DNA of 64,000 bases from a virus. Taxonomy: Duplodnaviria; Heunggongvirae; Uroviricota; Caudoviricetes. The notes under the pieces were generated by a model. It had not been told where the DNA came from, did not search any database, and saw only the letters and a program-made list of their open reading frames with translations. Position numbers and translations under genes: made by a program. Shown here piece by piece: positions 5,927 through 27,207 of the stretch (position 1 is the stretch's first letter; each line of letters opens with the position of its first letter). The stretch lies in the IMG/VR virus record IMGVR_UViG_2875703104_000004, one strand, 5' to 3'.

Positions 5927-5927
5927 A

Positions 5928-7105: not shown

Positions 7106-7348
7106 ATGAAAAAATCAGAAGTATTAGGCTATTTTGGCGGAGTTGTTAAAACAGCCGCAGCTCTAGGAACGTCAAAAACCACAGTCAGCATGTGGGGGGA
7201 AGAGGTTCCGTGGAAATGGGCGTTGCTAATTCAGGCAGTCACTGCCGGGGCGCTCAAATATGAGTTACACATACCGACGGTTGTCATTCCCGGTTCTGAT
7301 CATAATCCGCCTTCTAACCAAGGGGGGATTCATGAAAATCAAGCATGA
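7106..7348 (+). CDS. cro: Cro-like HTH regulator (80 aa)
   Basis: GGAG 7 nt upstream of the ATG; HTH-like AALGTSKTTVSMW; divergent from the repressor. Confidence 0.6.
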   Translation: MKKSEVLGYFGGVVKTAAALGTSKTTVSMWGEEVPWKWALLIQAVTAGALKYELHIPTVVIPGSDHNPPSNQGGIHENQA

Positions 7349-7757
7349 ACACATCCGCATGGCGATGAATGCCTGGGCGCATCCGGACGGCGAAAAAGTA
7401 CCGGCTGCGAAAATTACCAAAGCGTATTTCGAGCTGGGAATGACGTTCCCGGAACTGTATGACGACAGCCATCCGGAAGCCCTGGCTCGCAATACCCAGA
7501 AAATTTTCCGCTGGGTAGAGAAAGACACCCCTGATGCAGTTGAAAAAATTCAGGCGTTGTTACCAGCGATCGAAAAGGCAATGCCACCTTTGCTGGTGGC
7601 CAGAATGCGCAGCCACAGTTCAGCTTATTTTCGGGAGCTGGTGGAGACGCGGGAGCGACTGGTGAGAGACGCTGATGATTTTGTCGCAGTGGCAATCGCC
7701 GGTTTCAATCAGATGAACCGTGGTGGCCCGGCAGGAAATGCTGTGGCAGTACATTGA
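7333..7757 (+). CDS. Hypothetical early protein in the cII position (141 aa)
   Basis: Internal ATG at 7333 with AAGGGGGG upstream; begins MKIKHEHIRMAMNAW; position downstream of cro. Confidence 0.5.
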
Positions 7758-7788
7758 CTGACAATAGCCATATCGAATCGCTTCCGGC

Positions 7789-8115
7789 AACTCGTGAGTA
7801 AAAAGATTCGGTATCAGAAGAGGTGAGTATGGCTAACGCCTGGCTCAGATTATGGCATGACATGCCAAATGACCCTAAGTGGCGAACAATTGCCAGGGTG
7901 TCAGGGCAGCCAATTGCAACAGTGATGGCAGTGTATATCCACCTCCTGGTGNAACTCGTGAGTAAAAAGATTCGGTATCAGAAGAGGTGAGTATGGCTAA
8001 CGCCTGGCTCAGATTATGGCATGACATGCCAAATGACCCTAAGTGGCGAACAATTGCCAGGGTGTCAGGGCAGCCAATTGCAACAGTGATGGCAGTGTAT
8101 ATCCACCTCCTGGTG
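7789..8115. repeat. Tandem duplication of about 163 bp (7789-7951 and 7953-8115) joined by an N at 7952
   Basis: Seen directly; duplicates the RBS and first 41 codons of the next gene; likely a contig-join artefact. Confidence 0.8.
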
Positions 8116-9063
8116 AGCGCGTCACGAAATGTCACGCGAGGTCACATTGATGTCACGACAGAAGATTTGGCAAGTGCGCTCGACGTGACAGAAGAGGTAA
8201 TTGATTCAATTTTGCAGACGATGCAGGGGCGGGTACTTGATGGTGATTTAATCACTGGATGGGAAAAACGCCAGGTGCTGAAAGAGGACAACGGCAATAT
8301 TTCGCAAACCGCAAAATCTCCGGCAGAGCGCAAGAGGGCGCAGCGAGAGAGGGAAAGAAAGCGGGAACAAAATGGCGATTGTCACGGCGAGTCACGAAAT
8401 GTCACGCACATGTCACGACGAGTCACGACAGATAAAGATACAGATAAAGATACAGATCAAGAAGATCAAAACACTATGGTCCATGGCGTAAAAAACGCCA
8501 CGAACCAGGCAGGGGATGTTCAGACCGTCACTCCTGGCCAGCCCGCAGGCACGACACCGGAAGCCGATTCAGCGTATGCGCTGAAAGCCGATTCGGGCGC
8601 TGTGCAGCAGGTGATGACCGCAAGGCAGGAGCAATCACACCAACTTCAGCAGCCTGAAGCCGATTCCGCCATTCAGCGGGAAGCCGATCGGGTAGTCCCG
8701 GAAAACACCGGGCAGCCTGTGGGACGAGTGGATTATCCTGATGTGTTCGAACAGGTCTGGCGGGAATACCCGTTGCGTGCCGGGGCAAACCCGAAGAAAT
8801 CCGCTTTCAGTGCCTGGAAAGCCAGATTACGCGAGGGGGTGCCACCAGAGGCCATGCTGGATGGCGTGAGGCGTTACGCAAGATACCTTGCGGCTACCGG
8901 GAAAACGGGAACGGAATTTGTTCAGCGAGCGACGACGTTTTTTGGACCGGACCGGAATTTTGAAAACCCCTGGCTGCTCCCGGTAAGCGGCACGAACAAC
9001 CAGCGTTGTGTGAATCATATTTCTGAACCGGATAACGAAATTCCGCCGGGCTTCAGGGGGTAA
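7993..9063 (+). CDS. Putative prophage replication / replisome-organiser protein (356 aa)
   Basis: ATG at 7993 with GAGGTG upstream; conserved-looking N-terminus MANAWLRLWHDMPNDPKWRTIA (YdaU/DUF1376-like by recall); low-complexity acidic/basic middle. Confidence 0.6.
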   Translation: MANAWLRLWHDMPNDPKWRTIARVSGQPIATVMAVYIHLLVSASRNVTRGHIDVTTEDLASALDVTEEVIDSILQTMQGRVLDGDLITGWEKRQVLKEDNGNISQTAKSPAERKRAQRERERKREQNGDCHGESRNVTHMSRRVTTDKDTDKDTDQEDQNTMVHGVKNATNQAGDVQTVTPGQPAGTTPEADSAYALKADSGAVQQVMTARQEQSHQLQQPEADSAIQREADRVVPENTGQPVGRVDYPDVFEQVWREYPLRAGANPKKSAFSAWKARLREGVPPEAMLDGVRRYARYLAATGKTGTEFVQRATTFFGPDRNFENPWLLPVSGTNNQRCVNHISEPDNEIPPGFRG

Positions 9064-9103
9064 GTGTTAATTTCTGGTCATGAGGTAATTTTCAGGAGGG
9101 CTT

Positions 9104-9526
9104 GTGGCAAAAGTTTTTACACAAGAAGAGCGGGAAAAAATTAAAGGACAGGTTCTTGAACTCGTACGCCAGAGTGGGCGCGAGACGTTACGACAACTGG
9201 AAGCTAAAACTGGGGCAACAAGATATCTGATGAGCGTTCTGGCCAGAGAGCTGGTTGCCAGTGGCGATGTATACAATTCTGGCTACGGGTTATTCCCGTC
9301 TGAACAGGCTCGTAAAGACTGGCAAAATGCCCGCAAAAAATTATCGAGGGCAAAGCTGAAGAAACCGGTTGTGGTTGATCCGGACCTTATCTGGTCGTTA
9401 CCTGACGGAGAAATACGTCGCTACGACAGTCGCCTAAACATAATCTGTCGCGAGTGCCGGAAGAGTGAAGCTATGCAGCGTGTACTGGCTTTCTATCAGG
9501 GTAATTTTCAGGAGGCGGTACTGTGA
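9104..9526 (+). CDS. Hypothetical prophage protein (140 aa)
   Basis: ORF-track ORF; GGAGGG upstream; no motif recognised. Confidence 0.5.
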   Translation: MAKVFTQEEREKIKGQVLELVRQSGRETLRQLEAKTGATRYLMSVLARELVASGDVYNSGYGLFPSEQARKDWQNARKKLSRAKLKKPVVVDPDLIWSLPDGEIRRYDSRLNIICRECRKSEAMQRVLAFYQGNFQEAVL

Positions 9527-9562
9527 GTGAATTTAGCTATCAGGCTTCAATTACCGCTGGCA

Positions 9563-9846
9563 TTCGCATCAAAGGAGAGGAGCATGGAAATAAAACCAGA
9601 GGATGAGTTAAGCAATATCGTTTTATTTCCGGTAAAAGAGGATGACCCTCGTAATCAGGTTAATTTTCTTTATGAGCCATCGGAAAGACCATATTGTCAT
9701 CACGTTCGCATCAAAGGAGAGGAGCATGGAAATAAAACCAGAGGATGAGTTAAGCAATATCGTTTTATTTCCGGTAAAAGAGGATGACCCTCGTAATCAG
9801 GTTAATTTTCTTTATGAGCCATCGGAAAGACCATATTGTCATCACG
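9563..9846. repeat. Tandem duplication of a 142-bp unit (9563-9704, 9705-9846) covering the start of a small gene
   Basis: Seen directly; first copy yields a truncated ORF, second copy the full ORF. Confidence 0.8.
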
Positions 9847-10082
9847 CCTCTGTCCGGGTTGACGAAAAAGAGCGTCAGGTCCGCTGTAAAATCTGCGGTG
9901 CAGTTGTGGAGCCATTTGACTGGATGCTCTCTGTGGCGAAAAGAGAAACCAGACTGGCAGATGATGTAAGGCTCTTGCGTCAGGAGGAGCGGGAAAGGCG
10001 AAAAAATATAGAAAAGCTAATTCAGATTGAGCGTAACGCGAAAGCGCGGATACGCAGGGCGACAAAATCCAGAACTGAATAA
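9726..10082 (+). CDS. Hypothetical protein with Cys/His cluster (CHH...CKICG; zinc-ribbon-like), 118 aa
   Basis: ORF starting MEIKPEDEL in the second repeat copy; basic C-terminus. Confidence 0.5.
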   Translation: MEIKPEDELSNIVLFPVKEDDPRNQVNFLYEPSERPYCHHASVRVDEKERQVRCKICGAVVEPFDWMLSVAKRETRLADDVRLLRQEERERRKNIEKLIQIERNAKARIRRATKSRTE

Positions 10083-10175
10083 TTAAATTTAGCTCTGTTA
10101 AAAATTTAATCCTTAACCGGAGGGATTTCTGCACCCTCAGAACATCAGGAGGCCGCCCGAAAGGGCGGTAGTTAA

Positions 10176-10358
10176 ATGCGAAAGTTTAAAATAATTATTG
10201 AAACGGGAATAGCCGGTGGAGATTTCGAGGATGAATTCGAAGTGGATGATGATGCGACGCCTGATGAAATACATGACGAAGCAAAAGATATTTTCTTTAA
10301 CTACTGCAATTACTCATATCACGAAATAAAAGACAAAGAGGAAGAACAAAATGGCTGA
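10176..10358 (+). CDS. Small acidic hypothetical protein (60 aa)
   Basis: ORF-track ORF; overlaps the start of the next small ORF. Confidence 0.4.
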   Translation: MRKFKIIIETGIAGGDFEDEFEVDDDATPDEIHDEAKDIFFNYCNYSYHEIKDKEEEQNG

Positions 10359-10527
10359 TTTTGGTTCAACTAAATACAACGTCAGTTTTGAAGAATGGCA
10401 TGAACTGTTAATGGACTATGCAGAGTTACGTGGTGGCAGTGCTGCTGATGCTGAAGCATGGCGTGATGATTATGAAGCAGGAAAAACTCCGGTCGAAGCA
10501 TATTGTGATGAGTGGGGCGATGAATGA
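10351..10527 (+). CDS. Small acidic hypothetical protein (58 aa; MADFGSTKYNVSFEEWHELLMDYAEL...)
   Basis: My own translation; stop overlaps the next ATG. Confidence 0.4.
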   Translation: MADFGSTKYNVSFEEWHELLMDYAELRGGSAADAEAWRDDYEAGKTPVEAYCDEWGDE

Positions 10528-10781
10528 GCGAGGTTAATTATCAGGAAGGGCATGAAACGGCGGGGCAAGCAAAAACAGTGGCATGGCGATATCGCTACGT
10601 GAAAAAAAAGGCGTTACGGACTTTCAGGGGAAGTAGTGGTCTGGTGACTGGAAATATGTACCGAAAAAAGAGGATTGTAACGACAGGCCGAACTATGAAA
10701 TTCAGGCCTTATTCACTGCCCCGCCAGTCCCGGTTACATCAGAAGAACTGGTTAAAGCTGTGCACTTTTATGAACAACTAA
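10524..10781 (+). CDS. Hypothetical basic protein (85 aa)
   Basis: ORF-track ORF, translationally coupled to the previous one; composition unusual. Confidence 0.3.
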   Translation: MSEVNYQEGHETAGQAKTVAWRYRYVKKKALRTFRGSSGLVTGNMYRKKRIVTTGRTMKFRPYSLPRQSRLHQKNWLKLCTFMNN

Positions 10782-11010
10782 AACGCGAAAATCCACCAGC
10801 ATCCGGAAACCTGATTACAGATTCCCAGATAAGGCAATGAGCTACCTGGCGCAGAACGGGCTGATAAGTATGGGGAATGTTTTACGATGAATATTTAGAC
10901 TAAAGAGTTTGTAACGCTATGTAAGTGATTTTTTCTGGTTTAGATATTTATATGTCCGGCCAAACTGAGGTGTGTTTAAATGTAATTGCACATTGATTGT
11001 AGGAGGAATA

Positions 11011-11190
11011 ATGAAAAACGCATTGCAGTTTTTGTTTGTTGCGTTCTGGTTGTTCGTATCATGTATGCCCATCATCTTCACAGCAAGGTATATGGAAAAA
11101 GTTGATGTTTTGATATTAATATTTGGATATATAAATGCCCTTTTTTTAGGGGTGTTCATGGCGGTCATGTGCATTGAATACTGGCGGTAA
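11011..11190 (+). CDS. Small two-helix membrane protein (59 aa; MKNALQFLFVAFWLFVSCMPIIF...)
   Basis: Strong AGGAGG RBS 5 nt upstream; two hydrophobic segments; AT-rich. Confidence 0.55.
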   Translation: MKNALQFLFVAFWLFVSCMPIIFTARYMEKVDVLILIFGYINALFLGVFMAVMCIEYWR

Positions 11191-11339
11191 ATACAGCGAA
11201 CGCCATTGGTTTAGTTGGATATTTACTGTGCCGGACAAAAACGGTTTGCGGGGAAATCTTAGTTAAGTAGAATGACTGCGGGTGCTTGAGGCTATCTGTC
11301 TCAGGCATGAACACCAAAAGGCAGATAGAGAAAAGCCCC

Positions 11340-11450
11340 AGTTAACATTACGCGTCCTGCAAGACGCTTAACATTAATCTGAGGCCATATCTATGCGACA
11401 CATAGAGATTAGCCTCTTACGGACCGAAAGGTCAAGGAGAAGCAGGCTAT
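11340..11450 (-). ncRNA. sok: Expected position of Sok-like antisense RNA / mok leader for the hok locus
   Basis: Inferred from the known organisation of hok/sok loci; boundaries not determined from sequence. Confidence 0.25.
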
Positions 11451-11604
11451 GAAGCAGCAAAAGGCGATGTTAATCGCCCTGATCGTCATCTGTTTAACCG
11501 TCATAGTGACGGCACTGGTAACGAGGAAAGACCTCTGCGAGGTACGAATCCGAACCGGCCAGACGGAGGTCGCTGTCTTCACAGCTTACGAACCTGAGGA
11601 GTAA
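11449..11604 (+). CDS. hok: Hok/Gef-family type I toxin (51 aa; MKQQKAMLIALIVICLTVIVTALVTRKDLCEVRIRTGQTEVAVFTAYEPEE)
   Basis: My own translation (below ORF-track size cut-off); matches the Hok family pattern and, by recall, HokD/RelF. Confidence 0.8.
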   Translation: MKQQKAMLIALIVICLTVIVTALVTRKDLCEVRIRTGQTEVAVFTAYEPEE

Positions 11605-11771
11605 GAGACCTGGCGGGGGAGAAATCCCTCGCCACCTCTGATGTGTCAGGCATCCTCAACGCACCCGCACTTAACCCGCTTCGGCGGGTTTTGTTTTTTC
11701 CTGGCATTCTGGTTTACAATTCGCACGTCAGCCTGAACACCTGACACCTGCTGCGCCAGCAGAGAAAACAG

Positions 11772-12044
11772 ATGGCGCACAAAACCAAATTTCACAATTC
11801 TGATACCGACCTTGCCATCCGGCATGAGCGGCGTTCACACGCATTTAAAACCGACTGGTACCAACACCCACCATGTACTGAAGAACAGGCCGAATGGCTG
11901 ATTCATTCTTACCGCAGGCGCGGGTTCGAGGTTAAGAAAGCTCTCAGTCTCGACTATCGGCACTGGATAATCTCTGTCAGGCTGCCTTATTCCGAACGCC
12001 CACCACGTCCGTCCCGCACTTTCCAGCAACGGATCTGGAGGTAA
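11772..12044 (+). CDS. Hypothetical prophage protein (90 aa)
   Basis: ORF-track ORF directly upstream of the DUF968-like gene. Confidence 0.45.
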   Translation: MAHKTKFHNSDTDLAIRHERRSHAFKTDWYQHPPCTEEQAEWLIHSYRRRGFEVKKALSLDYRHWIISVRLPYSERPPRPSRTFQQRIWR

Positions 12045-12045
12045 C

Positions 12046-13104
12046 GTGCGGGTATTACTTAGACCTGTTCTGGTGCCTGAGCTTGGGCTGGTGGTCCTTA
12101 AGCCGGGCCGTGAATCCATACAGATATTTCATAATCCTCGAGTGCTGGTGGAGCCGGAACCGAAAAGCATGTGCGGCCTGCCATCCGGAGTCGTCCCTGC
12201 CGTTCGCCAGCCGCTGGCGGAGGATAAATCATTACTGCCATTTTTCAGCAATGAGCGTGTGATTCGTGCTGCTGGCGGCGCTGGTGCACTGTCTGACTGG
12301 CTGTTGCGCCATATTAAATCCTGCCAGTGGCCACACGGTGATTATCACCACAGTGAAACCGTCATTCACCGTTATGGTACCGGCGCAATGGTGTTGTGCT
12401 GGCACTGCGACAACCAGTTGTGTGACCAGACCTCAGAATCACTTGAGCAACTTGCTCACCAAAACTTGTCAGCATGGATGATTGACGTCATCCGTCACGC
12501 AATCAGCGGTACGCAGGAGAGGGAGTTATCGCTGGCCGAATTATCCTGGTGGGCGGTCTGCAATCAGGTGGCTGATGCGCTTCCGGAGTCTGTATTGTGT
12601 CGTTCACTGGGATTACCGGTGGAAAAAATCCGCTCCGTATACCGTGAGAGTGACATCGTACCGGGAGAACAGACTGCCACCAGCATACTGAAGCAGCGCA
12701 CAAAAAATATTGCGCTGCCACTTCACGTCCACCAGCAACAGCCCCCACTCCAGGAAAAGACGTTAGTAAGCATCGCCGTTGATCCGGAGTCTCCGGCTCA
12801 GTATCTCCAGCGCCAGAAACCACAACGGGAAGAGATGCCTGTATACACGCGCTGGGTAAAAACGCAGAAATGCATGACGTGCGGTAATCAGGCAGATGAT
12901 CCGCATCACATCATTGATCATGGCCTGGGAGGTATGGGAACAAAGGCTGATGATTTGTTTGTTATTCCGCTGTGCCGTAAATGTCATAACGAACTGCACG
13001 CCGGGGTAAAAGATTTTGAAGAAAAACACGGCAGCCAGCTGTTGTTGCTGATTCGTTTTTTAATGCACGCGAGAAATTCGGGTGTCCTGAAGTGGAAAGC
13101 ATGA
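12046..13104 (+). CDS. YdfU/DUF968-like prophage protein with C-terminal HNH-type Cys/His motif
   Basis: 352-aa ORF; C-terminus CMTCGN...DPHHIIDHG...CRKCHNELH; placed before rusA as in Qin-type prophages (recall). Confidence 0.6.
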   Translation: MRVLLRPVLVPELGLVVLKPGRESIQIFHNPRVLVEPEPKSMCGLPSGVVPAVRQPLAEDKSLLPFFSNERVIRAAGGAGALSDWLLRHIKSCQWPHGDYHHSETVIHRYGTGAMVLCWHCDNQLCDQTSESLEQLAHQNLSAWMIDVIRHAISGTQERELSLAELSWWAVCNQVADALPESVLCRSLGLPVEKIRSVYRESDIVPGEQTATSILKQRTKNIALPLHVHQQQPPLQEKTLVSIAVDPESPAQYLQRQKPQREEMPVYTRWVKTQKCMTCGNQADDPHHIIDHGLGGMGTKADDLFVIPLCRKCHNELHAGVKDFEEKHGSQLLLLIRFLMHARNSGVLKWKA

Positions 13105-13485
13105 ATGACTGAACGCATAGAATTTGTTTTGCCTTACCCGCCGACGGTGAATACCTACTGGCGACGTCATGGCAATACGTATTTCATCTCGGAGGCCGGA
13201 AAGCGTTATCGCCGTGATGTGGCGCTAATTGTTCGCCAGCAGCGGCTGAAATTAAACCTGTCCGGAAGGCTGGCGATAAAGGTGATTGCAGAGCCACCGG
13301 ATAAGCGTCGTCGCGACCTGGACAATATCCTGAAAGCACCGCTGGATGCGCTGACGCATGCGGGAGTGTTAATGGACGATGAGCAGTTTGATGAAATCAA
13401 TATCGTTCGTGGTCAGCCAGTATCTGGTGGACGTATGGGGGTGAAGATTTACCCCATAATGCATGAAGAGCAGGTCAAAAAATGA
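13105..13485 (+). CDS. rusA: RusA-family Holliday junction resolvase (126 aa)
   Basis: LPYPPTVNTYWRRHGNTYFISEAGKRYRRDV...RRRDLDNILKAPLDALTHAGVLMDDEQ parallels E. coli RusA, which also occurs at 33441-33803 in this window. Confidence 0.85.
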   Translation: MTERIEFVLPYPPTVNTYWRRHGNTYFISEAGKRYRRDVALIVRQQRLKLNLSGRLAIKVIAEPPDKRRRDLDNILKAPLDALTHAGVLMDDEQFDEINIVRGQPVSGGRMGVKIYPIMHEEQVKK

Positions 13486-14037
13486 AACTGGAAGATTTAC
13501 CGAAATACTACTCCCCAAAATCCCCTGGCCTGACCGATGCATCGGCCTCAACGTCAAAAGATGCGCTGAGTATCACTGATGTGATGGCCGCGCAGGGCAT
13601 GACACAGAATCGGGCTGNGAAAGCGTTATCGCCGTGATGTGGCGCTTATTGTTCGCCAGCAGCGGCTGAAATTAAGCCTGTCCGGAAGGCTGGCGATAAA
13701 GGTGATTGCAGAGCCACCGGATAAGCGTCGTCGCGACCTGGACAATATCCTGAAAGCACCGCTGGATGCGCTGACGCATGCGGGAGTGTTAATGGACGAT
13801 GAGCAGTTTGATGAAATCAATATCGTTCGTGGTCAGCCAGTATCTGGTGGACGTNTGGGGGTGAAGATTTACCCCATAATGCATNAAGAGCAGGTCAAAA
13901 AATGAAACTGGAAGATTTACCGAAATACTACTCCCCAAAATCCCCTGGCCTGACCGATGCATCGGCCTCAACGTCAAAAGATGCGCTGAGTATCACTGAT
14001 GTGATGGCCGCGCAGGGCATGACACAGAATCGGGCTG
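13199..14037. repeat. Tandem duplication of about 419 bp (13199-13617, 13619-14037) joined by an N at 13618
   Basis: Seen directly; second copy carries extra Ns; duplicates the rusA 3' end and Q 5' end; likely a join artefact. Confidence 0.85.
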
Positions 14038-14365
14038 AGATGGGNTTTTCTGCGTTCCTGGGGAAAATGGGCATCAGTATGAATGACAGGGCGCGGGCAA
14101 CAGAATTACTGGCAGATTATGCACTCAGTCGGTGCGATCGTGTGGCGGCGTTGAGAAAACTTCCGGCAGAAATAAAACCGGTAGTGATGCGCATTATGGC
14201 TTCGTACGCTTTTGAGGATTATGCCCGCAGCGCAGCGAGTAAAAAGCAGTGCCCTTGTTGCTATGGGGAAAAATTTATTGAAAGCGTAGTTTTTACAAAC
14301 AAGGTCCAGTATCCGGATGGTAAGCCGCCGGTATGGGCAAAGTGTACGAAAGGTGTGTATTCGTC
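13903..14365 (+). CDS. Q: Lambda-Q-like late antiterminator, 3' end cut off at the N at 14366 (an N-terminal copy also at 13483-13617)
   Basis: KYYSPKSPGLTD...LSITDVMAAQGMTQNRA...CPCCYG resembles lambda Q (FHSPKSP...DVMAAMGM...) by recall. Confidence 0.6.
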
Positions 14366-14366: not shown

Positions 14367-14917
14367 AGTTCCGTAATCTGCTTACGCAGGGGGGCAAGGG
14401 TTTGGGTAATCTTGGCTTTATAAGTATCGGCATTGCGTTGGTAGGTTTGTGCATTTGCCGGATCGTATTTTATCAACGCATCACGAATATTATCGACGTA
14501 AATCAGAGCATTATCTGGCGACATCCATGCATGGGGGTTAGGTTTGCCCTCATAGGGTCCTTCGGTGATCCCTACAGGCGTCACACCCGAAGAGACAATT
14601 ACTTCTGGAACCCCATTGAGATGCTGGTAAAAGCGTTGGAACCACAATTCCAGATTCATACCATTGGCGAGAATCAGTTGTGCCCCCTGCGCACGTTTAA
14701 TATCGCCAGGGGTAGGCTGATACTCATGAATTTCTGCACCAGGCTTGGTTATGGATGAGACTTCTGCAGCATCTCCCGCCACGTTTTTGGCCATATCCGC
14801 GATGATGGTAAATGTTGTAATGACCTTGAATTTTTCAGTTGCACTTGCCTGAAATGCGATCGAGCAGGTGAGTGCGAGGCCCCCCAAGAGCATGGTTACT
14901 TTTTTTATCGAGTGCAT
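14367..14917 (-). CDS. N-terminal 183 aa of a SitA/YfeA/MntC-family Mn/Fe ABC-transporter periplasmic binding protein (truncated at the junction)
   Basis: Signal peptide MHSIKKVTMLLGGLALTCSIAFQASA then TroA-like region EKFKVITTFTIIADMAK...EIHEYQPTPGDIKRA...NPHAWMSP. Confidence 0.7.
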
Positions 14918-15603
14918 AATTTAGTACCTATAGTGAGCAAAATTAGAACAAACATAGCAACGGCTATGTTTTATAGCACAACCTATACAAAATGAAAATG
15001 ATTATCATTAGCGGTTTTGAGGCCCAAAACAGGGATTAGGTTGTTTCCGGCTGGCGACGCGTTATTGAGGAAAAAAGTAAGGCAGCTAGTAGGCTTTGAA
15101 ATAACGTTTTGCGGTTGGCTGATGCAATTTCGAGAGTGCATGTATTGAATGATTTCTAGCCGTTACTGATTTTCGTATTTTTTGTATGGGAGGATTTGCA
15201 CCTCTCCCCACCGAGCCTCCATGACTTTACTCCACTGTCTCTAGGGCTGCTGTGTGCCAGGAGCGGAAGCAGGGGGGCCAGAGACTCCTTAAAAGTTGAT
15301 AGCTCGTTTTGCAGGGAGACTTACACGGTAAGCGTTATTCCGAAGAGCTTAAAATTGAAGCAGTCAAACGGGTTGTTGAGCGTGTTTATGCGCTGCCATC
15401 TGATTAATCGACGGAAGCAGTTCCGTTTGGTCTATGATGCAGTTGTCCGGCAGGCGCTCTGTGACGCAAAAGAACGATAGGAGTAGCATTGAAGTGAACG
15501 AGGTTATGCTTGTCTTATATTATCCTCTATTTTAAAAACATCAGCTGGTTGTGTAAGAGTTTTTATTGTTTTATCTTGTTGACTTTGCTTTTATGAAAAC
15601 AGA

Positions 15604-16374
15604 GTGATTGATACAATGAAAACCTTAAGTGGGAAAGAGTTTAGGAAATTATTTAATCGTTATGAGACAGGATTCTATCTAAGTGAGTTTGAATACTTAA
15701 AGGACTTTGATCCTTTGTTTCCTGAATGCGTAGGGAAAGAATTAAAGTTGGGTTATAAACGAAAAGTTGATGTATGGTGCGAAGAGGATGCTGCGCTATA
15801 TGCAGAATTTATAGCTACAAAAGAAAGGCTGAAAAGAGGCCGGTTAATCCTAAAAATAAACCAAGTGTGGTCGCGTGTATATCCTGCTTATATTTATGCA
15901 ATTGAAGAAAGAATAAATGTCAGGGCAAAGGGGAGAGAGTCATTTAAGTATGAAACTGTGCAAGAAAAACAATGTAAACTTTCCATAATGTTAGATGGTC
16001 TGAAAGACCTTGAATGTGAAATAGCTATGATTTCAAGTGAGTTTGAAATTGAAAAACACTCTATGCACTATTTTTATATGATTTTTGATATTGAACGCTA
16101 TATAAATGACTGCAGTTACTTTGTTTTTTCTGCTGCTAAAGTTGTTAAAGGCGTGATTCAATGCATTGGTTACATTGACAAAAATAACAAAGCAAGTTGC
16201 GATGAATTTTATTCAGGCAGCTATGAATGCTTGGATGATGATCAGGAAACACTGAACTATTTAAATGAATCATGCGCAGAGGGTATAGACGCTGATAAAG
16301 ATCTCATCAGGAAGAATGAGTTATTAGCCTTATCCCTGAAGGAATTGTATCAACTTCTCGTTTCAAAAAAATAA
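15604..16374 (+). CDS. Hypothetical protein (256 aa), AT-rich, function unknown
   Basis: ORF-track ORF, low GC relative to prophage DNA; no motif recognised. Confidence 0.5.
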   Translation: MIDTMKTLSGKEFRKLFNRYETGFYLSEFEYLKDFDPLFPECVGKELKLGYKRKVDVWCEEDAALYAEFIATKERLKRGRLILKINQVWSRVYPAYIYAIEERINVRAKGRESFKYETVQEKQCKLSIMLDGLKDLECEIAMISSEFEIEKHSMHYFYMIFDIERYINDCSYFVFSAAKVVKGVIQCIGYIDKNNKASCDEFYSGSYECLDDDQETLNYLNESCAEGIDADKDLIRKNELLALSLKELYQLLVSKK

Positions 16375-16832
16375 CAAGTAATACGGCGAGCGATATGACG
16401 TGCCATGGGATATCCGCACCCAGCAGCATGTTGTCTCCACGATGTCCGCAGTTCGCTCATAATAGACATTCACTACAGTTATAGTAGAAGGTATGCATGC
16501 TGCTGAGTGGGGAAAGTGTGAAAGAAAAGAAGACAGCTGCTTTGTTTGTCGTCACGTTTATCTTCATTGGCTATGCAAGTCGTAATACAAGGCGGGACAA
16601 AACTGAGACACATAAGGCCTCGCAATGGCTTGCAAGGCCACACATGTATTGAGATGTTAATAAAATGTAGACTTGTAATTTTGATATAAATGGTAGAGAA
16701 AATCTTTCCCCAAAATAAAAACGAACGTCAATGAAATCAAACGGTTGAATAAAGTTGATTTTGGCTAATACAAAGACAAGAAAATAATATTTATGATTAA
16801 ATATCAGCGAGTTGAATACATAATTTTTATAT

Positions 16833-16998
16833 ACTGCTGCGCCACATGGGTTGGACCGAAGCGGCTGATTTAATTGTTAAAGGTATGGAAGGCGCAATCA
16901 ATGCGAAGACCGTAACCTATGACTTCGAACGTCTGATGGAAGGCGCTAAACTGTTGAAATGTTCAGAGTTTGGTGACGCGATCATCAAGAATATGTAA
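16833..16998 (+). pseudogene. icd: Displaced 3' fragment of icd (isocitrate dehydrogenase), last about 54 codons
   Basis: Translation [55 protein letters not shown] matches the Icd C-terminus by recall; no icd sequence upstream of 16833. Confidence 0.85.
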
Positions 16999-17021
16999 TC
17001 ACTACATGTGTTAAATATTAT

Positions 17022-17052
17022 AACGGGCGTATAACACGCCCGTTGTTTTTTG
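17022..17052 (+). terminator. Rho-independent terminator (icd terminator)
   Basis: Hairpin acgggcgt-ataa-cacgcccgt followed by TTTTTTGTT immediately after the icd stop. Confidence 0.7.
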
Positions 17053-17434
17053 TTAGCCTGCTAACGGTTATCAAAATTTTATCAAAATAAGTTATCAAAA
17101 CCCCTTGGTTGTTGGGGGGCTGCCAGATGGCAGTTCTCCTGCTAGGTTCCCTCGGGGCATTCCTCAGCTTTTTATTATTGCTGGTGGATGGCCGTTAATA
17201 TTTAAGATCTGTTATGCGCCAGACGCTGTGCTTACTAGAATATTGTTGTGTCAAATGGTTTGGTATACTCTGATTGTGGCTAATATGTAAATCATTTTAA
17301 CTAATAATTAAAATTTCTGAGGGTACTCGAGTTTTCTTATATATTTAACTTTCTCGCAATATACATTTACGTTTCTGTTGTTGTTTTTGATATAATTCAA
17401 TGAGTCTCAACAAAACAAGATTTTCGGAAATTAT

Positions 17435-18952
17435 ATGGATATCATTATTGTACCCCGAGACCAACGTATTCCTGCCTCAGGCATTAGTACGGCTTACTTG
17501 CATGTGGATCATTGGAATGACTTTTCATTCATTACAATGTTTTACATGTATCTGTTTGATCAGAAAGGTGAACGCCATGAAATTGGGAATGTCAAGATTG
17601 GTTTTCAAGGACAAACAACTCAACAATCAACTTACTCCACATTAGGGGACAGGTTTAAAATTCTCCCAGAAGGATATTTTTCCGTTGGTCAGGATGTCGA
17701 CTATTATCAGAGGATTTCAAATTTACCAGAATCCGTCAAAGTTTCGTTACTTGAGGCGCTCAAAGATATTGCTTATACGCCAGAACTTATAGATTTCGTT
17801 AAGAATGAAGCGGTCTTTAAAACGTCTTTGCTTCGGTATGTTAGCCTGTCTGTTATTAAAGGACAGTTTGCGCGAGTGCTTGAGGGAAAGGGTCCACTGA
17901 CTAATTTTGAGTTTAAGTTCATTCGCCCTGCACAAGACAAAATTTCCGATATTGAATTATCATTTAAGGTAAAAGTAGGAGAAAAACCAAGTACCAATAT
18001 TCATGCGATCATAGGTCGTAATGGTGTGGGGAAAACGACGATTCTAAATGGAATGATTGAAGCTGTTACCAGTAAAGGTACGTCGAACGCAAAATTTTAT
18101 GATCTGGAGGGGTGGAGAGAAGACCCGATTGATAATGATTACTTTAGTAGTTTAGTCTCTGTGTCATTTAGCGCATTCGATCCATTCGAGCCACCAAGTG
18201 AACAACCTGATCCATCAAAGGGAACTTGCTACTTCTATATAGGTTTGAAAAAAAAAGGAGAGTCGCTGAAAGGGCTAAATGATATTCATGAAGACTTTCT
18301 AGAAGCTTTGACGCTATGCTTTAGCCAGCATCCTAAGCGTGAAAGATGGCTGAAGGCCATTGATACTTTGGAGTCTGATGAAAATTTTGCAAGCATGGAG
18401 CTGAAAAATCTAGCGGAATACAATGATGAGATGCTCGTTAGTAATGCACGGAAATGTATAAAAAGGATGAGTTCCGGTCATGCGGTTGTGTTATTAACAC
18501 TCACACGTTTAGTCGCAACGGTAGAAGAAAAAACGTTAGTGCTAATTGATGAACCAGAGAGCCATCTTCATCCTCCGTTGCTGTCTGCTTTTATTCGTGC
18601 GCTGTCTGATTTGCTACTTGACAGAAATGGTCTTTCTATTATTGCTACTCACTCACCTGTGGTACTTCAAGAGGTCCCTAAACGATGTGTTTGGAAAATT
18701 AATCGTTCTAGATTATCTACCGAATCTCGCAGGCCAGACATTGAAACATTTGGTGAGAATGTAGGAATCTTAACAAGAGAGGTGTTTGGTCTTGAAGTTG
18801 TCAAATCTGGTTTTCACGATTTATTAGTCCAATCAGTTAAGTCAGGTGGAACATATGAGGAGATAGTTGATGAGTATCGTAACCAGCTTGGTGTTGAAGC
18901 TCGAGCTCTATTAAAAGCGCTTGTCACACACAGAGATCGGAGTGTTAAGTAA
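17435..18952 (+). CDS. ABC-type (AAA_15/AAA_21-like) ATPase with a 190-aa N-terminal domain of unknown function; first gene of a candidate defence pair
   Basis: 505-aa ORF; Walker A IIGRNGVGKTT, Walker B/D-loop LVLIDEPESHLHPPL, H-loop ATHSP; stop overlaps the start of the next gene (TAATG). Confidence 0.8.
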   Translation: MDIIIVPRDQRIPASGISTAYLHVDHWNDFSFITMFYMYLFDQKGERHEIGNVKIGFQGQTTQQSTYSTLGDRFKILPEGYFSVGQDVDYYQRISNLPESVKVSLLEALKDIAYTPELIDFVKNEAVFKTSLLRYVSLSVIKGQFARVLEGKGPLTNFEFKFIRPAQDKISDIELSFKVKVGEKPSTNIHAIIGRNGVGKTTILNGMIEAVTSKGTSNAKFYDLEGWREDPIDNDYFSSLVSVSFSAFDPFEPPSEQPDPSKGTCYFYIGLKKKGESLKGLNDIHEDFLEALTLCFSQHPKRERWLKAIDTLESDENFASMELKNLAEYNDEMLVSNARKCIKRMSSGHAVVLLTLTRLVATVEEKTLVLIDEPESHLHPPLLSAFIRALSDLLLDRNGLSIIATHSPVVLQEVPKRCVWKINRSRLSTESRRPDIETFGENVGILTREVFGLEVVKSGFHDLLVQSVKSGGTYEEIVDEYRNQLGVEARALLKALVTHRDRSVK

Positions 18953-19809
18953 TGTTGAAACTTAAACAACCTGCTTACACATATGCCGATATGCTGACTA
19001 GTTGCCGCGAAGGCATAACCGGTAATCCGGGCTTGTTGCTGAAAGTAAATGAAGCAATAACTGATTTGCAAACACTGGCAGCTTCATATAGCGCATCGGC
19101 ATCAACTGGTGAGCTTTATACAATACAACCATTGAAAAACAAAGATAAGGAAGACCCTATTGTTGTCGGTCGGTTAAAGAAATCTGACTTTGTTAAGCTT
19201 TATGGCAATTATGTTGTTGGGAAGAAAAAGCCTGCTCGAGCTATTTATGATTCCCTGATTACTGCTGCTAATGAAAAATGTCCATATTGTGGTGGAATTG
19301 GGCGCCCTCGAAATTTAGATCATTATTTGCCTAAAGCTTACTATCCTCAGTTTTCTATATTGCCAGTTAATCTGGTGCCTGCTTGTCGAGACTGTAATAT
19401 GGATGGCAAAGGGGAAGTTTTTGCAAGAAATGAAGCAGAACAGATCATACATCCCTATTTAGACGATAGCCGTTATTATGATGAACAGTGGATATCGGCT
19501 AGATACTTGGCTGGCAAAAATGATGAGCCAGGAGTTATTGAGTATTTTGTTTCTCCACCGGCTGATTGGGATGAAGCACACAAACAAAGAGTGGAAAAAC
19601 ATTTTAACGATTTTGATTTGTCTTTAAGATATTCGAAAGAGGCTAGTGCGAGATTAGTTGTACTTTTAGCTCTATATAACTCAGTGCTACCACTCTCCAG
19701 AGATAAAAATGCTGCTAAACACCTTATATTTCAAACAATAATTAATAAATCGCCTTTTGTGAATCATTGGGAACGGGTTATGTGTTTGGCTCTTATGTCA
19801 GACTTGTAG
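18952..19809 (+). CDS. HNH endonuclease-motif protein (285 aa); second gene of the candidate defence pair
   Basis: CPYCGG...LDHYLPKAYYP...N...PACRDCN, a zinc-finger HNH signature; translationally coupled to the ATPase gene. Confidence 0.8.
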   Translation: MLKLKQPAYTYADMLTSCREGITGNPGLLLKVNEAITDLQTLAASYSASASTGELYTIQPLKNKDKEDPIVVGRLKKSDFVKLYGNYVVGKKKPARAIYDSLITAANEKCPYCGGIGRPRNLDHYLPKAYYPQFSILPVNLVPACRDCNMDGKGEVFARNEAEQIIHPYLDDSRYYDEQWISARYLAGKNDEPGVIEYFVSPPADWDEAHKQRVEKHFNDFDLSLRYSKEASARLVVLLALYNSVLPLSRDKNAAKHLIFQTIINKSPFVNHWERVMCLALMSDL

Positions 19810-19864
19810 TAATGCTTGAAGTTTTTATTTCTGTTCTAATTTCGTAGTTCCATTTTATTAAATA

Positions 19865-19897
19865 GATACCAAGCTCTATGCATAAGAGCTTGGTATC
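19865..19897. terminator. Perfect 13-bp-stem hairpin (gataccaagctct / agagcttggtatc), candidate bidirectional terminator after the HNH gene
   Basis: Seen directly; flanking sequence only moderately T-rich. Confidence 0.4.
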
Positions 19898-20077
19898 TAT
19901 TGAAATTAAGCTCAATAACTGATCTGCTCTCCATTGATTAACACGTCACAATATTAGTAATGTAACTATTAGGTTTCGAGATTAACTGCGAACTTCTGCT
20001 TTTTGCTCAAAGTGGACTGTTTGGTTCTTTTTCAAGTGTAGTTCGAAATTCAAGGTGGCGTTAAGGCACTTAATGCT

Positions 20078-21204
20078 TTACAACGCTACTTTACTCCATC
20101 CTTTACCTCGATCATCATGATAACGATCGGTTTGCTGTTGCGTTTTATGACCAAGTAGTTTTTGTGTATTTAAACCCTGTTCTTTATACAAACGTTCTGA
20201 TAAAGACCTTTGTTCATGAAATGTTGCGGGAGAACCTTCACCCCAGTTAATTCCTGCTAAATCCCTCGCTTTACTGAAATTCATCGTCAATGTATTGGCT
20301 TTAACCTGCGCGCCGCGTTCAGCCTGTGAGGTAGTACGAAAAAAATGTACAAGGTATGGGCTGACAGCATAGTCACGGCAGCGGGCTACTACATCGCGCA
20401 AACTCCATTTAATCGCATTGAGACGCAGGGAAAGCGGGATGGCGATTTTGCTCCCGGTTTTTTCCTGGATGACATGGAGATGATCATCCCAAATATCGCT
20501 AAATTTCATACGCGAGATATCACCTAACCTCTGGCCGGTAACCAGTGCTAACAGCATGGCATTCCCCATATAACGATGACTGGCATCAGCGATATCAAAG
20601 ATTTTTTGCCACTCTTCAAGACTTAACCGTTGTCGGGTAATTTTTCTTCTGGGCTGTTTGGTGGCTAATGCCGGGTTATAGCCAGGGGGACTTCTCCGTA
20701 GTGTTGCGCCTCTTTGAAAACATCAATCAGTACGGAACGAACTACTTGCGCCATTCTCGGCTGTCCGGCGGCGATATACTCGTCAAGCAACTGGGCTATA
20801 TCCCTGACATCAACGGCTGAAATTAACTTCAGTCCTGCTCGTTCCCTGAGCAAGGATACTGGTTTGGCTTTCTGTTTATAGGTGTTGAGCTTTATATCGC
20901 CACTTTTCAGTCTGTCTTCCTGGATTGCTTGATAGCGATCTAACCAGGTTGACGTTGTGATTGCTTTTCCTTTGCTGGTTGCGATCCTGTCACTGATAGC
21001 TAGAATCTGCCGGGTTCTTTGCTCAGCTAGGCGTGTATTGGCCTCAGTGGCAATAGCAATGGCTTCAGCTTCGTTTGTGCCCAAAGAATGAAACTTCCCG
21101 GTCACTGGATGCTTATATCGCCAATAAACTTTATTTACTTTTCTGCTATAGAGCGGATACAAGTTCGGGACTGAAACATTATTCTTACGTGGTCTGGCTG
21201 CCAT
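20078..21204 (-). pseudogene. int: Lambda-Int-like integrase split by a -1 frameshift in a C5 homopolymer (G run on the + strand at 20685-20689)
   Basis: N-terminal ORF 20665-21204 and C-terminal ORF 20078-20569 are co-linear with the integrase at 1-1119; adding one C restores ...GEVPPGYNPALATKQPRRKITRQRL... Confidence 0.8.
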
Positions 21205-21317
21205 TACTTAAAATCCTTTGTAGAATAATAGAATCACTTTTCTTAATGACAGGAGTAACTAATTCTCCAACTAACTCTGCGTCCTCACGTACTCGCCATA
21301 GTCGACCTTGTTTCATT
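21185..21317 (-). CDS. Small ORF in the xis position (43 aa), just left of the IS911 end
   Basis: ATG at 21317, overlaps the int start; assignment by position only. Confidence 0.3.
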
Positions 21318-21396
21318 GCCGGTGTGTAGTGGCACACTGAATTTGGCCACCTGAACAGAGGTGATATGCTCACCTCAGAACAACACAGGTGCTCCA

Positions 21397-21657
21397 ATGA
21401 AAAAAAGAAATTTCAGCGCAGAGTTTAAACGCGAATCCGCTCAACTGGTTGTTGACCAGAACTACACGGTGGCAGATGCCGCCAAAGCTATGGATATCGG
21501 CCTTTCCACAATGACAAGATGGGTCAAACAACTGCGTGATGAGCGTCAGGGCAAAACACCAAAAGCCTCTCCGATAACACCAGAACAAATCGAAATACGT
21601 GAGCTGAGGAAAAAGCTACAACGCATTGAAATGGAGAATGAAATATTAAAAAANGCN
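21397..21657 (+). pseudogene. IS911 orfA, 5' part, interrupted by the IS30 left end
   Basis: Reading frame ends at the junction with TGTAGATTCAATTGG; Ns at 21654 and 21657. Confidence 0.7.
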
Positions 21658-21723
21658 ACTGTAGATTCAATTGGTCAACGCAACAGTTATGTGAAAACAT
21701 GGGGTTGCGGAGGTTTTTTGAAT

Positions 21724-23332
21724 GAGACGAACATTTACAGCAGAGGAAAAAGCCTCTGTTTTTGAACTATGGAAGAACGGAACAGGCTTCAGTGAAATAG
21801 CGAATATCCTGGGTTCAAAACCCGGAACGATCTTCACTATGTTAAGGGATACTGGCGGCATAAAACCCCATGAGCGTAAGCGGGCTGTAGCTCACCTGAC
21901 ACTGTCTGAGCGCGAGGAGATACGAGCTGGTTTGTCAGCCAAAATGAGCATTCGTGCGATAGCTACTGCGCTGAATCGCAGTCCTTCGACGATCTCACGT
22001 GAAGTTCAGCGTAATCGGGGCAGACGCTATTACAAAGCTGTTGATGCTAATAACCGAGCCAACAGAATGGCGAAAAGGCCAAAACCGTGCTTACTGGATC
22101 AAAATTTACCATTGCGAAAGCTTGTTCTGGAAAAGCTGGAGATGAAATGGTCTCCAGAGCAAATATCAGGATGGTTAAGGCGAACAAAACCACGTCAAAA
22201 AACGCTGCGAATATCACCTGAGACAATTTATAAAACGCTGTACTTTCGTAGCCGTGAAGCGCTACACCACCTGAATATACAGCATCTGCGACGGTCGCAT
22301 AGCCTTCGCCATGGCAGGCGTCATACCCGCAAAGGCGAAAGAGGTATGAACCGCCCCGGGAATCCTGGAGACTAAACTTCCTGAGAAAGAGGTAAACAGG
22401 ATGACTAAAAATACTCGTTTTTCCCCCGAAGTCCGTCAACGGGCAGTCCGTATGGTTCTGGAAAGTCAGAGCGAATATGACTCACAATGGGCGACAATTT
22501 GTTCCATTGCTCCAAAGATTGGCTGTACGCCGGAGACTCTGCGTGTCTGGGTTCGCCAGCATGAGCGGGATACCGGGGGCGGTGATGGAGGGCTCACCAC
22601 CGCTGAACGTCAGCGTCTGAAAGAGCTGGAACGTGAAAATCGTGAACTGCGCCGCAGTAACGATATCCTTCGCCAGGCTTCCGCTTATTTTGCGAAGGCG
22701 GAGTTCGACCGCCTCTGGAAAAAATNCGAATATCACCTGAGACAATTTATAAAACGCTGTACTTTCGTAGCCGTGAAGCGCTACACCACCTGAATATACA
22801 GCATCTGCGACGGTCGCATAGCCTTCGCCATGGCAGGCGTCATACCCGCAAAGGCGAAAGAGGTACGATTAACATAGTGAACGGAACACCAATTCACGAA
22901 CGTTCCCGAAATATCGATAACAGACGCTCTCTGGGACATTGGGAGGGCGATTTAGTCTCAGGTACAAAAAACTCTCATATAGCCACACTTGTAGACCGAA
23001 AATCACGTTATACGATCATCCTTAGACTCAGGGGCAAAGATTCTGTCTCAGTAAATCAGGCTCTTACCGACAAATTCCTGAGTTTACCGTCAGAACTCAG
23101 AAAATCACTGACATGGGACAGAGGAATGGAACTGGCCAGACATCTAGAATTTACTGTCAGCACCGGCGTTAAAGTTTACTTCTGCGATCCTCAGAGTCCT
23201 TGGCAGCGGGGAACAAATGAGAACACAAATGGGCTAATTCGGCAGTACTTTCCTAAAAAGACATGTCTTGCCCAATATACTCAACATGAACTAGATCTGG
23301 TTGCTGCTCAGCTAAACAACAGAACCGCGCTC
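21724..23332 (+). pseudogene. IS30 transposase gene, split by the IS629-like insertion/duplication and missing its last about 25 codons
   Basis: N-part 21724-22370 and C-part 22862-23332 (HWEGDL...GTNENTNGLIRQYFPK); the ORF ends in IS911-derived sequence. Confidence 0.7.
22376..22725 (+). mobile_element. IS629/IS1203-like (IS3 family) left end with orfA, cut off at an N join
   Basis: Terminal TGAACCGCCCCGGG and Orf[42 protein letters not shown]... (recall); sequence returns to IS30 after the N at 22726. Confidence 0.65.
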
Positions 23333-25600
<2,268 letters not shown>

Positions 25601-25636
25601 CCACTACAAAACACTGCTGAGATATTCAATTTTCCA

Positions 25637-26509
25637 GTGCCGGATGTGGCACAAAAGGAGCGGCGCGTGGCAGATCTCGACGATGGTTATACGCGCATTG
25701 CAAATGAGTTGCTGGAAGCTGTGATGCTGGCCGGATTAACACAGCACCAGTTTCTGGTCTTCCTGGCTGTCATGCGCAAAACATATGGCTTTAATAAAAG
25801 ACTGGATTGGGTGAGCAACGAGCAACTTTCCGAATTGACCGGGATATTGCCGCACAAGTGTTCTGCTGCAAAAAGCGTTCTGGTAAAGCGTGGGATTTTT
25901 ATTCAGAGCGGGCGGAATATCGGCATTAATAATGTGGTCAGTGAATGGTCAACATTACCCGAATCAGGTAAGAAAAATAAAGTTTACCTGAAAGAGGTAA
26001 ATTTACCTGAATCAGGTAAGAAAAGTTTACCCAAATCAGGTAAACACAAAAGACAAACTAACAAAAGACAATATAAAACCTTTTTCGTCCGAGAATTCTG
26101 ACGAATCCTCTGACCAGCCAGAAAACGATCTTCCTGTGGTGAAACCGGATGCTGCAATTCAGAGCGGCAGCAAGTGGGGGACAGCAGAAGACCTGATCGC
26201 CGCAGAGTGGATGTTTGACATGGTGAAGACCATCGCGCCATCAGCCAGAAAACCGAATTTGCAGGGTGGGCTAACGATATCCGCCTGATGCGTGAACGTG
26301 ACGGACGTAACCACCGCGACATGTGTGTACTGTTCCGCTGGGCATGCCAGGACAACTTTTGGTCTGGTAACGTGCTGAGCCCGGCCAAACTTCGCGACAA
26401 GTGGACCCAACTCGAAATCAACCGTAACAAACAACAGGCTGGCGTGACAGCCGGAAAACCAAAACTCGACCTGACAAACACTGACTGGATTTACGGGGTG
26501 GATTTATGA
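25637..26509 (+). pseudogene. O: Lambda O-like replication initiator, 5'-truncated by the IS nest and broken by two frameshifts at homopolymer runs (near 26060-26100 and near 26270)
   Basis: VADLDDGYTRIANELLEA...QFLVFLAVMRKTYGFNK and C-terminal ...LSPAKLRDKWTQLEINRNKQ...TDWIYGVDL resemble lambda O by recall; three frames needed to read through. Confidence 0.7.
25955..26043 (+). repeat. Four iteron-like repeats (TTTACCYGAATCAGGTAA-type) followed by an A-rich stretch: candidate ori-lambda-type origin inside O
   Basis: Seen directly; iterons embedded in the O gene are an established lambda feature. Confidence 0.6.
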
Positions 26510-27207
26510 AAAACATCGCCGCACAGATGGTTAACTTTGACCGTGAGCAGATGCGTCGGATCGCCAACAATATGCCGGAACAGTACGACGAAAAGCCGCA
26601 GGTACAACAGGTAGCGCAGATCATCAATGGTGTGTTCAGCCAGTTACTGGCAACTTTCCCGGCGAGCCTGGCTAACCGGGACCAGAACGAACTGAACGAA
26701 ATTCGCCGCCAGTGGGTGCTGGCTTTCCGGGAAAACGGGATCACCACAATGGAACAGGTTAACGCAGGAATGCGCGTAGCCCGTCGGCAGAATCGACCAT
26801 TCCTGCCATCACCCGGGCAGTTTGTTGCATGGTGCCGTGAAGAAGCATCCGTTATTGCCGGACTGCCAAACGCCAGCGAGCTGGTTGATATGGTTTACGA
26901 GTATTGCCGGAAGCGTGGCCTGTATCCGGATGCAGAGTCTTATCCGTGGAAATCAAACGCGCACTACTGGCTGGTTACTAGCCTGTACCAGAATATGCGG
27001 GCCAATGCGCTTACTGATACGGAATTACGGCGCAAGGCTGCCGATGAACTGACTTGTATGACCGCGCGAATTAACCGTGGTGAGGCGATACCTGAACCAG
27101 TAAAACAACTTCCTGTCATGGGCGGTAGACCTCTAAATCGTGTTCAGGCGCTGGCGAAGATCGCAGAAATCAAAGCTAAGTTCGGGCTGAAAGGAGTGAT
27201 GAAATAG
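26506..27207 (+). CDS. P: Lambda P replication protein (DnaB helicase loader), 233 aa
   Basis: MKNIAAQMVNFDREQMRRIANNMPEQYDEKPQVQQVAQIINGVF... near-identical to lambda P by recall. Confidence 0.9.
   Translation: MKNIAAQMVNFDREQMRRIANNMPEQYDEKPQVQQVAQIINGVFSQLLATFPASLANRDQNELNEIRRQWVLAFRENGITTMEQVNAGMRVARRQNRPFLPSPGQFVAWCREEASVIAGLPNASELVDMVYEYCRKRGLYPDAESYPWKSNAHYWLVTSLYQNMRANALTDTELRRKAADELTCMTARINRGEAIPEPVKQLPVMGGRPLNRVQALAKIAEIKAKFGLKGVMK

Follow-up and report, generated by a model that had tools for sequence, protein, structure and literature searches.

The icd fragment and its terminator

The window analyzed here is a stretch of 64,000 nucleotides that corresponds to bases ~2,614,584-2,678,583 of GenBank CP035330.1; the locus taken from that record (L012) is identical to it, Ns included. 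On its plus strand, positions 16834-16998 encode in frame the 54 C-terminal codons of icd (isocitrate dehydrogenase) and the stop codon, and a nucleotide search with this stretch returned an icd-annotated match, rather than a match to another gene, in 5426 of 5426 complete E. coli genomes. Alignment to an intact icd, the check proposed in an earlier note on this DNA, put the start of nucleotide homology at 16835 (base 16834 is c in the window and a in icd) and delimited a core at 16835-16850. The fragment (16835..16998) comprises 164 nt, or 54 codons and the stop, and shares its starting point in icd with the 165-bp icdC pseudogene of K-12. The earlier note had assigned 16833-16998 to the last ~54 icd residues with the icd terminator, which holds once the homology start is shifted to 16835, and had stated that icd sequence is absent upstream, which was confirmed by blastn and tblastn searches that found no second icd-like sequence in the 64-kb window. 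The fragment is separate from any icd 5′ part and is followed by the icd terminator.

The fragment is 100% identical to the 3′ end of the intact icd in three of the compared loci (L001, L004 and L013) and only 88-95% identical to the other icd-end copies compared. Over 16835-17050, all 216 of 216 positions are identical to the 3′ end and terminator of the intact icd in MCJCHV-1 and CUVET21-H2, and some 70 complete E. coli genomes have an intact icd that ends in the same copy. By this 216-bp identity to the 3′ end of an intact icd, the fragment is an element-borne replacement copy that belongs to the e14-family element on its right. The earlier note had called the fragment a displaced icd 3′ end; in view of the 216/216 identity it is not the original chromosomal 3′ end.

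The icd transcription terminator (17020..17056, plus strand) consists of a hairpin at 17020-17046 with a T-run. Its stem pairing is kept via compensatory changes in K-12 e14 and in the loci L009 and L011, suggesting selection for termination of the rebuilt icd transcript. In a comparison of 17022-17044 with K-12 locus L007, L009 and L011, the hairpin varied among element-borne copies (gggcgtataacacgccc versus gggagcgtaacgctccc) with pairing retained. On the minus strand, 17012-17258 gave an Rfam match to the Salmonella Hfq-binding sRNA STnc150 (34.9 bits, E=1e-4) that is below the family's gathering score of 60; this stretch overlaps both the icd terminator and the e14-type arm.

The e14-family element on the right

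The sequence at 16835-22346 is 99.95% identical to the sequence inside and downstream of the intact icd in MCJCHV-1 and CUVET21-H2, and ~70 complete-genome records match this region at 99% or more. The gene order in MCJCHV-1 and CUVET21-H2 is icd, AAA ATPase, HNH endonuclease, frameshifted intE, xis, IS30/IS3/ISEc21 and lambda-like O/P genes. Directly after the icd stop lies the conserved int-side (left) arm of e14-family elements (16999..17210, plus strand). Homology to the K-12 e14 arm spans +11 to +222 from the icd stop (212 bp, 81% identity) and is followed by variable cargo; past +222 no K-12 e14 homology was detected, and the e14 sRNA C0293 had no Rfam match.

The integrase gene is a pseudogene (intE, 20078..21204, minus strand) with a frameshift near codon 173 (about 20686-20689). 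In a tblastn search with K-12 IntE, residues 1-173 aligned in one frame at 97% identity and residues 173-375 in another at 96%, and intE is annotated as frameshifted in both MCJCHV-1 and CUVET21-H2. The two int ORFs match PF09003 and PF00589, the N-terminal one carrying the Pfam domain Arm-DNA-bind_1. The excisionase gene xis (21185..21373, minus strand), a 62-aa gene in L012, was named from the RefSeq annotation of identical sequence. An IntE-type integrase with an arm-binding N-domain, xis, and an e14-type left arm with its own icd end are thus combined on this side, and the right-hand sequence can be classified as the int-proximal end of an e14-family element. With an Int 96-97% identical to K-12 IntE, this supports the earlier proposal that the fragment marks an icd-targeting, e14-type integration site.

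Within the left arm we located three direct TTATCAAAA repeats (17068..17100, plus strand), which start at 17068, 17079 and 17092, 11 and 13 bp apart, and occupy 17067-17100 when the leading g/t is included. The window contains 4 copies of TTATCAAAA against 0.85 expected, a number reached in none of 100 shuffles. All three copies are invariant in K-12 e14, MS1657, L009, L011 and L021 while the flanking sequence diverges, and K-12 e14 has an extra copy 127 bp left of icdC. The motif accordingly occurs as clustered direct repeats in the int-side arm, is conserved in the family and, in K-12 e14, is present in the other arm too; it fits candidate arm-type sites to which IntE would bind. The three repeats noted earlier at 17059-17096 are therefore real with slightly different coordinates, and their suggested role as integrase arm-type sites gains support from their perfect conservation across diverged e14 relatives.

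Defense cargo between arm and integrase

Between the arm and int lies a predicted defense pair, as had been noted before: the two genes together occupy 17435-19809, ahead of the minus-strand int at 20078-21204. The first (17435..18952, plus strand) encodes a PtuA-family AAA ATPase, identified by the PADLOC models PtuA PDLC00282 (E=4e-239) and PDC-M01A and by the Pfam domains AAA_15 and AAA_21. The second (18952..19809, plus strand) encodes its HNH endonuclease partner, with a PADLOC match to PDC-M01B (E=1e-114) and an HNH annotation in RefSeq. The 25 best PADLOC matches of the HNH protein are all PDC-M01B and none is PtuB, and we refer to the pair as a putative Septu-like / PDC-M01 system.

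The slot between arm and int spans 17211-20077 in the window, and the corresponding intervals are 1597-4680 in L007, 9916-11199 in L005, 1025-4194 in L011 and 8555-11724 in L021. Its cargo differs among relatives: YmfD/YmfE/Lit in K-12, PtuA and HNH in the window, and DarT and DarG in L011 and L021. In MS1657 the slot carries a Sll1717-family P-loop ATPase that has no PADLOC match. The slot looks like a point at which defense genes are swapped in e14-family elements; the main text of the E. coli defense-island survey makes no mention of icd or e14, and several different defense cargoes are now documented for one slot of these elements.

The CFT073-type element on the left

On the other side, 14367-17050 matches, at 99.6% identity, the right attachment end of the icd prophage of CFT073, where the order is sitA, a gene for a 256-aa hypothetical protein (hyp), the right arm and a displaced icd fragment. 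In the window, the 5′ part of the cargo gene sitA (14367..14917, minus strand; 99.6% identity to CFT073 locus L002, 4868-7551) is truncated at a contig join. The hyp gene (15604..16374, plus strand; WP_000567449.1 in CFT073 and MS1657) is the last before the right attachment site and has no PADLOC match. It is followed by the right arm, or P arm, of the CFT073-type element (16375..16834, plus strand), as delimited by contiguity in relatives: this arm adjoins a displaced icd fragment in CFT073, MS1657, L009-L011 and L016-L024. At the left end of the CFT073 prophage, Int directly follows icd and is 60% identical to IntE. The P arm of the window contains AAAATCTTTCCCCAAAA (16699..16715, plus strand). 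Two CTTCCCCAAAAC repeats located between icd and int in CFT073 have AAAATCTT and TTCCCCAAAA in common with it. On the strength of these shared motifs, AAAATCTTTCCCCAAAA is a candidate arm-type site for the CFT073-type integrase, which may bind there.

These similarities identify 14367-16834 as the right end of a second icd-integrating prophage, of CFT073 type, to which the left-hand element is confined in the window. NC-SV of NC101, which is related to the CFT073 icd prophage, has been placed at the phage 21 site in icd (PMC12803456). A second element to the left had been proposed earlier, and its CFT073-type right end at 14367-16834 agrees with that; 1-14365, in turn, is another prophage, the early region (int to mid-Q) of an unrelated lambdoid prophage that is located at potC/potB in CUVET21-H2. 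Farther to the right, 34254-57433 is 99.6-100% identical to the late genes of the CFT073 icd prophage.

The ST1193-type icd element (L004 20485-50000, L008; CUVET21-H2), which we compared with 16835-34266 of the window, has features of both families. It has an e14-type left arm with a broken intE and a CFT073-like, hyp-deleted right arm; an IS30/IS3/ISEc21 cluster directly follows xis, the head and tail genes are deleted, and essD and gpJ are fused. Its appearance is that of an old tandem pair that deletions have fused, and it should be immobile. The right-hand element's far end falls beyond the window; the right arm of CUVET21-H2, a relative of the right-hand element, has no TTATCAAAA (with one mismatch or fewer allowed) and is CFT073-type-like instead, suggesting a fused composite element.

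The attachment junction

To the left of 16835 the window contains phage arm and not icd, and from 16835 onward it contains the e14-family icd copy. The core identity block tgctgcgccacatggg (16835..16850, plus strand), within which the exchange must lie, has only 16835-16844 invariant in all copies compared: the first mismatch is at 16851 against the CFT073 attR copy and at 16845 against the ST1193 attR copy. Since the switch falls between 16834 and 16851, the exchange lies within the attachment core and not at a random point in the 216-bp repeat. This comparison confines it to a core of 10-16 bp, which is what site-specific recombination would produce. A PCR or overlap chimera was considered as the main explanation and rejected, because the switch occurs within the first 10-16 bp of a 216-bp homology; overlap or template-switch chimeras rarely switch within the first 16 bp of such a stretch.

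The order found here (right arm of one element, core, left arm of another) is that of the internal junction of a tandem array. The two arms carry different motifs, CFT073-type TTCCCCAAAA on the left and three e14-type TTATCAAAA repeats on the right, and the junction can be classed as a hybrid of a CFT073-type right arm and an e14-type left arm. The same arrangement in one piece is formally an attP, and a single element with the icd end (16835) and hyp as its limits, either as an excised circle or as a head-to-tail duplication, would produce it; a related icd prophage in NRG857c excises and replicates on induction (PMC10111431). We consider this origin very improbable. With motifs of different integrases on its two arms, the junction is not the cognate attP of one phage, the element's intE is frameshifted, and a minority circular form would not normally win the consensus. 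Moreover, the arm on the left is of the CFT073 type, hyp included, while the related ST1193-type right arm is diverged and hyp-deleted.

Quality of the source record

CP035330.1 is labeled a chromosome, yet it is a stitched draft with concatenation artifacts. Self-comparison of the window revealed at least 10 exact duplications of 117-422 bp at presumed contig ends. These near-tandem duplications occupy 1410-1956, 2506-2784, 5121-5384, 7789-8115, 9563-9846, 13199-14040, 22208-22865, 41360-41592, 58609-58909 and 62762-62994, and have the look of contig ends that overlap and were left unmerged. Two of them, the 117-bp ones at 41360-41592 and 62762-62994, lie where the window matches a phage portal gene and, if they are inside it, would add 39 in-frame codons each. 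The window also contains 37 Ns, several of them at joins; several of the duplications adjoin single Ns or the 21-N run at 2635-2655. An N in this record is an ambiguous consensus over a collapsed repeat: those at 58005, 58321, 58441 and 58559 coincide exactly with sites at which the potB-prophage type differs from the CFT073 type. In addition, 558 bp around 58063-58620 are missing from the other copy, at the N at 37361.

A single N at 14366 marks the contig join left of the CFT073-type end, with the Q gene of the potB/potC prophage on its left and mid-sitA on its right. Since the sequence left of this N belongs to the potB/potC prophage, it is not the left-hand element, and the overall order in the record is untrustworthy. 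The late genes (lysis, terminase, portal) of the same potB/potC prophage occupy 57433-64000, and in CUVET21-H2 this prophage lies ~46 kb upstream of icd; an order with its two parts on either side of the icd-prophage block cannot be genuine. The idea that a permuted prophage had really inserted into the potB/potC prophage was considered and rejected, as the joints at 14366 and 57433 are non-homologous and coincide with contig ends. At 57432/57433 unrelated sequences abut without an N, and silent misjoins therefore occur in CP035330.1. Adjacency across its Ns and duplicated ends is not to be trusted, and we found no paper citing CP035330.

Two further irregularities lie to the right of xis. After an IS30 fragment comes a 379-bp IS3-family end at 22347-22725, which shows 100% identity to the CFT073 copy and ends at an N, and the contig after this N repeats the prior 139 bp and continues with no IS3; either the insertion is polymorphic or a repeat has caused a misjoin. 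At 34254-34266 the best match changes from ST1193-like (99.95%) to CFT073-like (99.9%). Absent at this point is a 1.28-kb segment present in both reference types, with the 3′ part of quuD and an ompC-like porin gene; the segment occurs in two places in ST1193-type genomes, probably including chromosomal ompC.

Tandem integration or misassembly

The main competitor of a real array is an assembly artifact. The strain would have only one icd prophage, a mosaic whose left end is e14-type, whose late genes are CFT073-type and whose right end is sit-hyp; it would have been stitched from its right attachment end through the repeated icd 3′ segment into its left end, giving a false circular-permutation junction. 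The record favors this account in several respects: it is demonstrably stitched and partly mis-ordered, with the potB/potC prophage on both sides of the block, and it contains overlap duplications, Ns and the bare abutment at 57433. The order of 16835-57433 matches one linear prophage, and the CFT073-like late genes at 34254-57433 could come from such a mosaic rather than from a separate left-hand element. The exact junction, searched as the 47-mer 16824-16870, was absent from the 5426 complete E. coli genomes, the JGI metagenomes and IMG/VR, which makes it unique to CP035330.1 among everything searched. A published survey also suspects that some apparent tandems are assembly artifacts (PMC10111431).

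Against these points stands the repeat itself. The artifact needs a right-end icd copy identical to the left-end copy over 216 bp, whereas across the 20+ loci examined every chromosome-side icd copy shows only 91.7-95.4% identity to the left-end copy. Had the right- and left-end copies differed, Ns or mixed SNPs would be expected in 16835-17050, and none is found there. Icd-end copies differ by 5-12%, and Ns in this record mark the SNPs of collapsed repeats, so with its clean 216 bp the junction is not a two-copy pile-up. Neither edge of the repeat has a duplication or an N, and the block at 14367-22725 lies between two Ns and is itself free of Ns and duplications; the breaks are found instead at segments common to both prophage types. 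We therefore regard a false join as unlikely, with a larger share of the remaining doubt than the attP.

The positions of the breaks bear on the same question. The N at 14366 sits on a G/A SNP between CFT073-type and ST1193-type sitA, and the contig breaks at which sequence is left out (34254/34266 and 57433) are located where near-identity between the two prophage types begins; what is omitted is the 1.28-kb quuD-ompC segment at 34254/34266 and about 4.9 kb, from tail fiber to sitA, after 57433. Both the N on the sitA SNP and the breaks at near-identical segments are what a genome with both elements, collapsed in their common parts, should show. A plasmid-borne sitA was also considered as an origin for the N at 14366; with 95-99% identity, typical plasmid copies should leave more ambiguous bases than the record has, and they fit the lack of further Ns less well.

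On balance, the reading that we hold to be probable is a real two-element tandem array, in which the window captures the middle attachment junction of two elements stacked in icd; its proof is not possible from CP035330.1 alone. The earlier suggestion of a tandem array is upheld to that extent: the anatomy of the junction and natural precedents speak for it, and a stitched draft leaves it short of provable. The precedents are MS1657, L021, L009 and L011, which share the architecture of sit prophage, hyp, icd fragment, e14-family arm, cargo and int. Each of their e14-family elements has its own icd-end variant, 88-92% identical to that of the window.

We infer that the e14-family element would be the older of the two. 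It would have integrated first and its icd copy would have become the working 3′ end, the state in which ~70 complete genomes still are. It carries, in order, the icd 3′ end with the terminator, the three arm-type repeats, PtuA/HNH, the frameshifted intE, xis, IS elements and lambda-like early genes. As this element supplies an icd-like 3′ end, its left junction rebuilds an intact icd, which would be a usable target for the next icd-specific integrase. A lambdoid phage of the CFT073/NC-SV type, with sitABCD and an Int 60% identical to IntE, would then have recombined at the same core, bringing its own icd 3′ end and pushing the resident copy about 50 kb downstream. The outcome would be the observed order: the right arm of the newcomer (sitA-hyp), the 16-bp core, and the icd end and left arm of the older element. 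The early genes of the CFT073-type element, the full icd with that element's 3′ end and a third icd fragment are not in the window; in an array they would be expected beyond it.

A more general proposal, made tentatively and with somewhat less than even confidence, is that icd serves as a landing pad that can be used again and again, the latest arrival lying closest to the gene, and that the arm-int slot acts as a swap point for anti-phage genes. Repeated use would follow from the intact icd that every icd-integrating element restores at its left junction; if so, leftover icd ends would stack in order of arrival.

Relation to known icd prophages

That e14 and phage 21 integrate into icd and bring a replacement 3′ end with them has been textbook knowledge since 1989-1997. 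The phenomenon is already known whichever reading holds, and the elements are annotated in many genomes; with icd integration long established, the scientific importance of the locus is small. Its use is as a clean example of how stacked attachment-site fragments can be read by pairing each icd copy with its arm. Among the adjacent prophages at one attB, e14 and phage 21 in icd were reportedly described by Wang et al. in 1997 (J Bacteriol 179:5705) as having related, non-interchangeable integrases side by side at the same icd site, and the attP is said there to require about 209 bp homologous to the icd 3′ end. That length compares with 216 bp of icd homology here; the earlier pair was a laboratory K-12 lysogen, while the window comes from a natural B2-type strain with different cargo.

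As a site for prophages, icd is well known (PMC10111431), and the cryptic prophage e14 of K-12, with its icd and icdC, was described by Hill et al. 1989 (as cited in PMC6379469 and PMC12803456). The right-hand element resembles K-12 e14 in its icd target and breakpoint (a 165-bp icdC there and 164-165 bp here), in an Int that is 96-97% identical, in a left arm with three TTATCAAAA repeats, and in the layout of icd end, arm, defense cargo, int and xis. It differs in its cargo (PtuA/HNH versus YmfD/YmfE/Lit), in its frameshifted intE, in the lack of conservation of the sRNA C0293 region and in having its icd end detached from icd. The left 2.5 kb (sitA-hyp-right arm) resembles the CFT073 icd prophage and NC-SV, with 99.6% identity to the CFT073 right end. 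In CFT073, however, the chromosomal icd remnant and ycgX come after the right arm, whereas here it is followed by the icd copy of another element, and the window lacks the CFT073-type int and early genes.

The closest natural counterparts in architecture and left arm are the arrays of MS1657 (NZ_CP135957.1), a complete genome, of GCA_017332245.1 (L021), a draft assembly, and of the IMG/VR loci L009 and L011. Their e14-family partners differ from that of the window in cargo (a Sll1717-type ATPase or DarT/DarG), in an intact int and in the icd-end variant, which is 88-92% identical. In MS1657 the downstream order is the Sll1717-type ATPase, an intact int, xis and e14-like genes.
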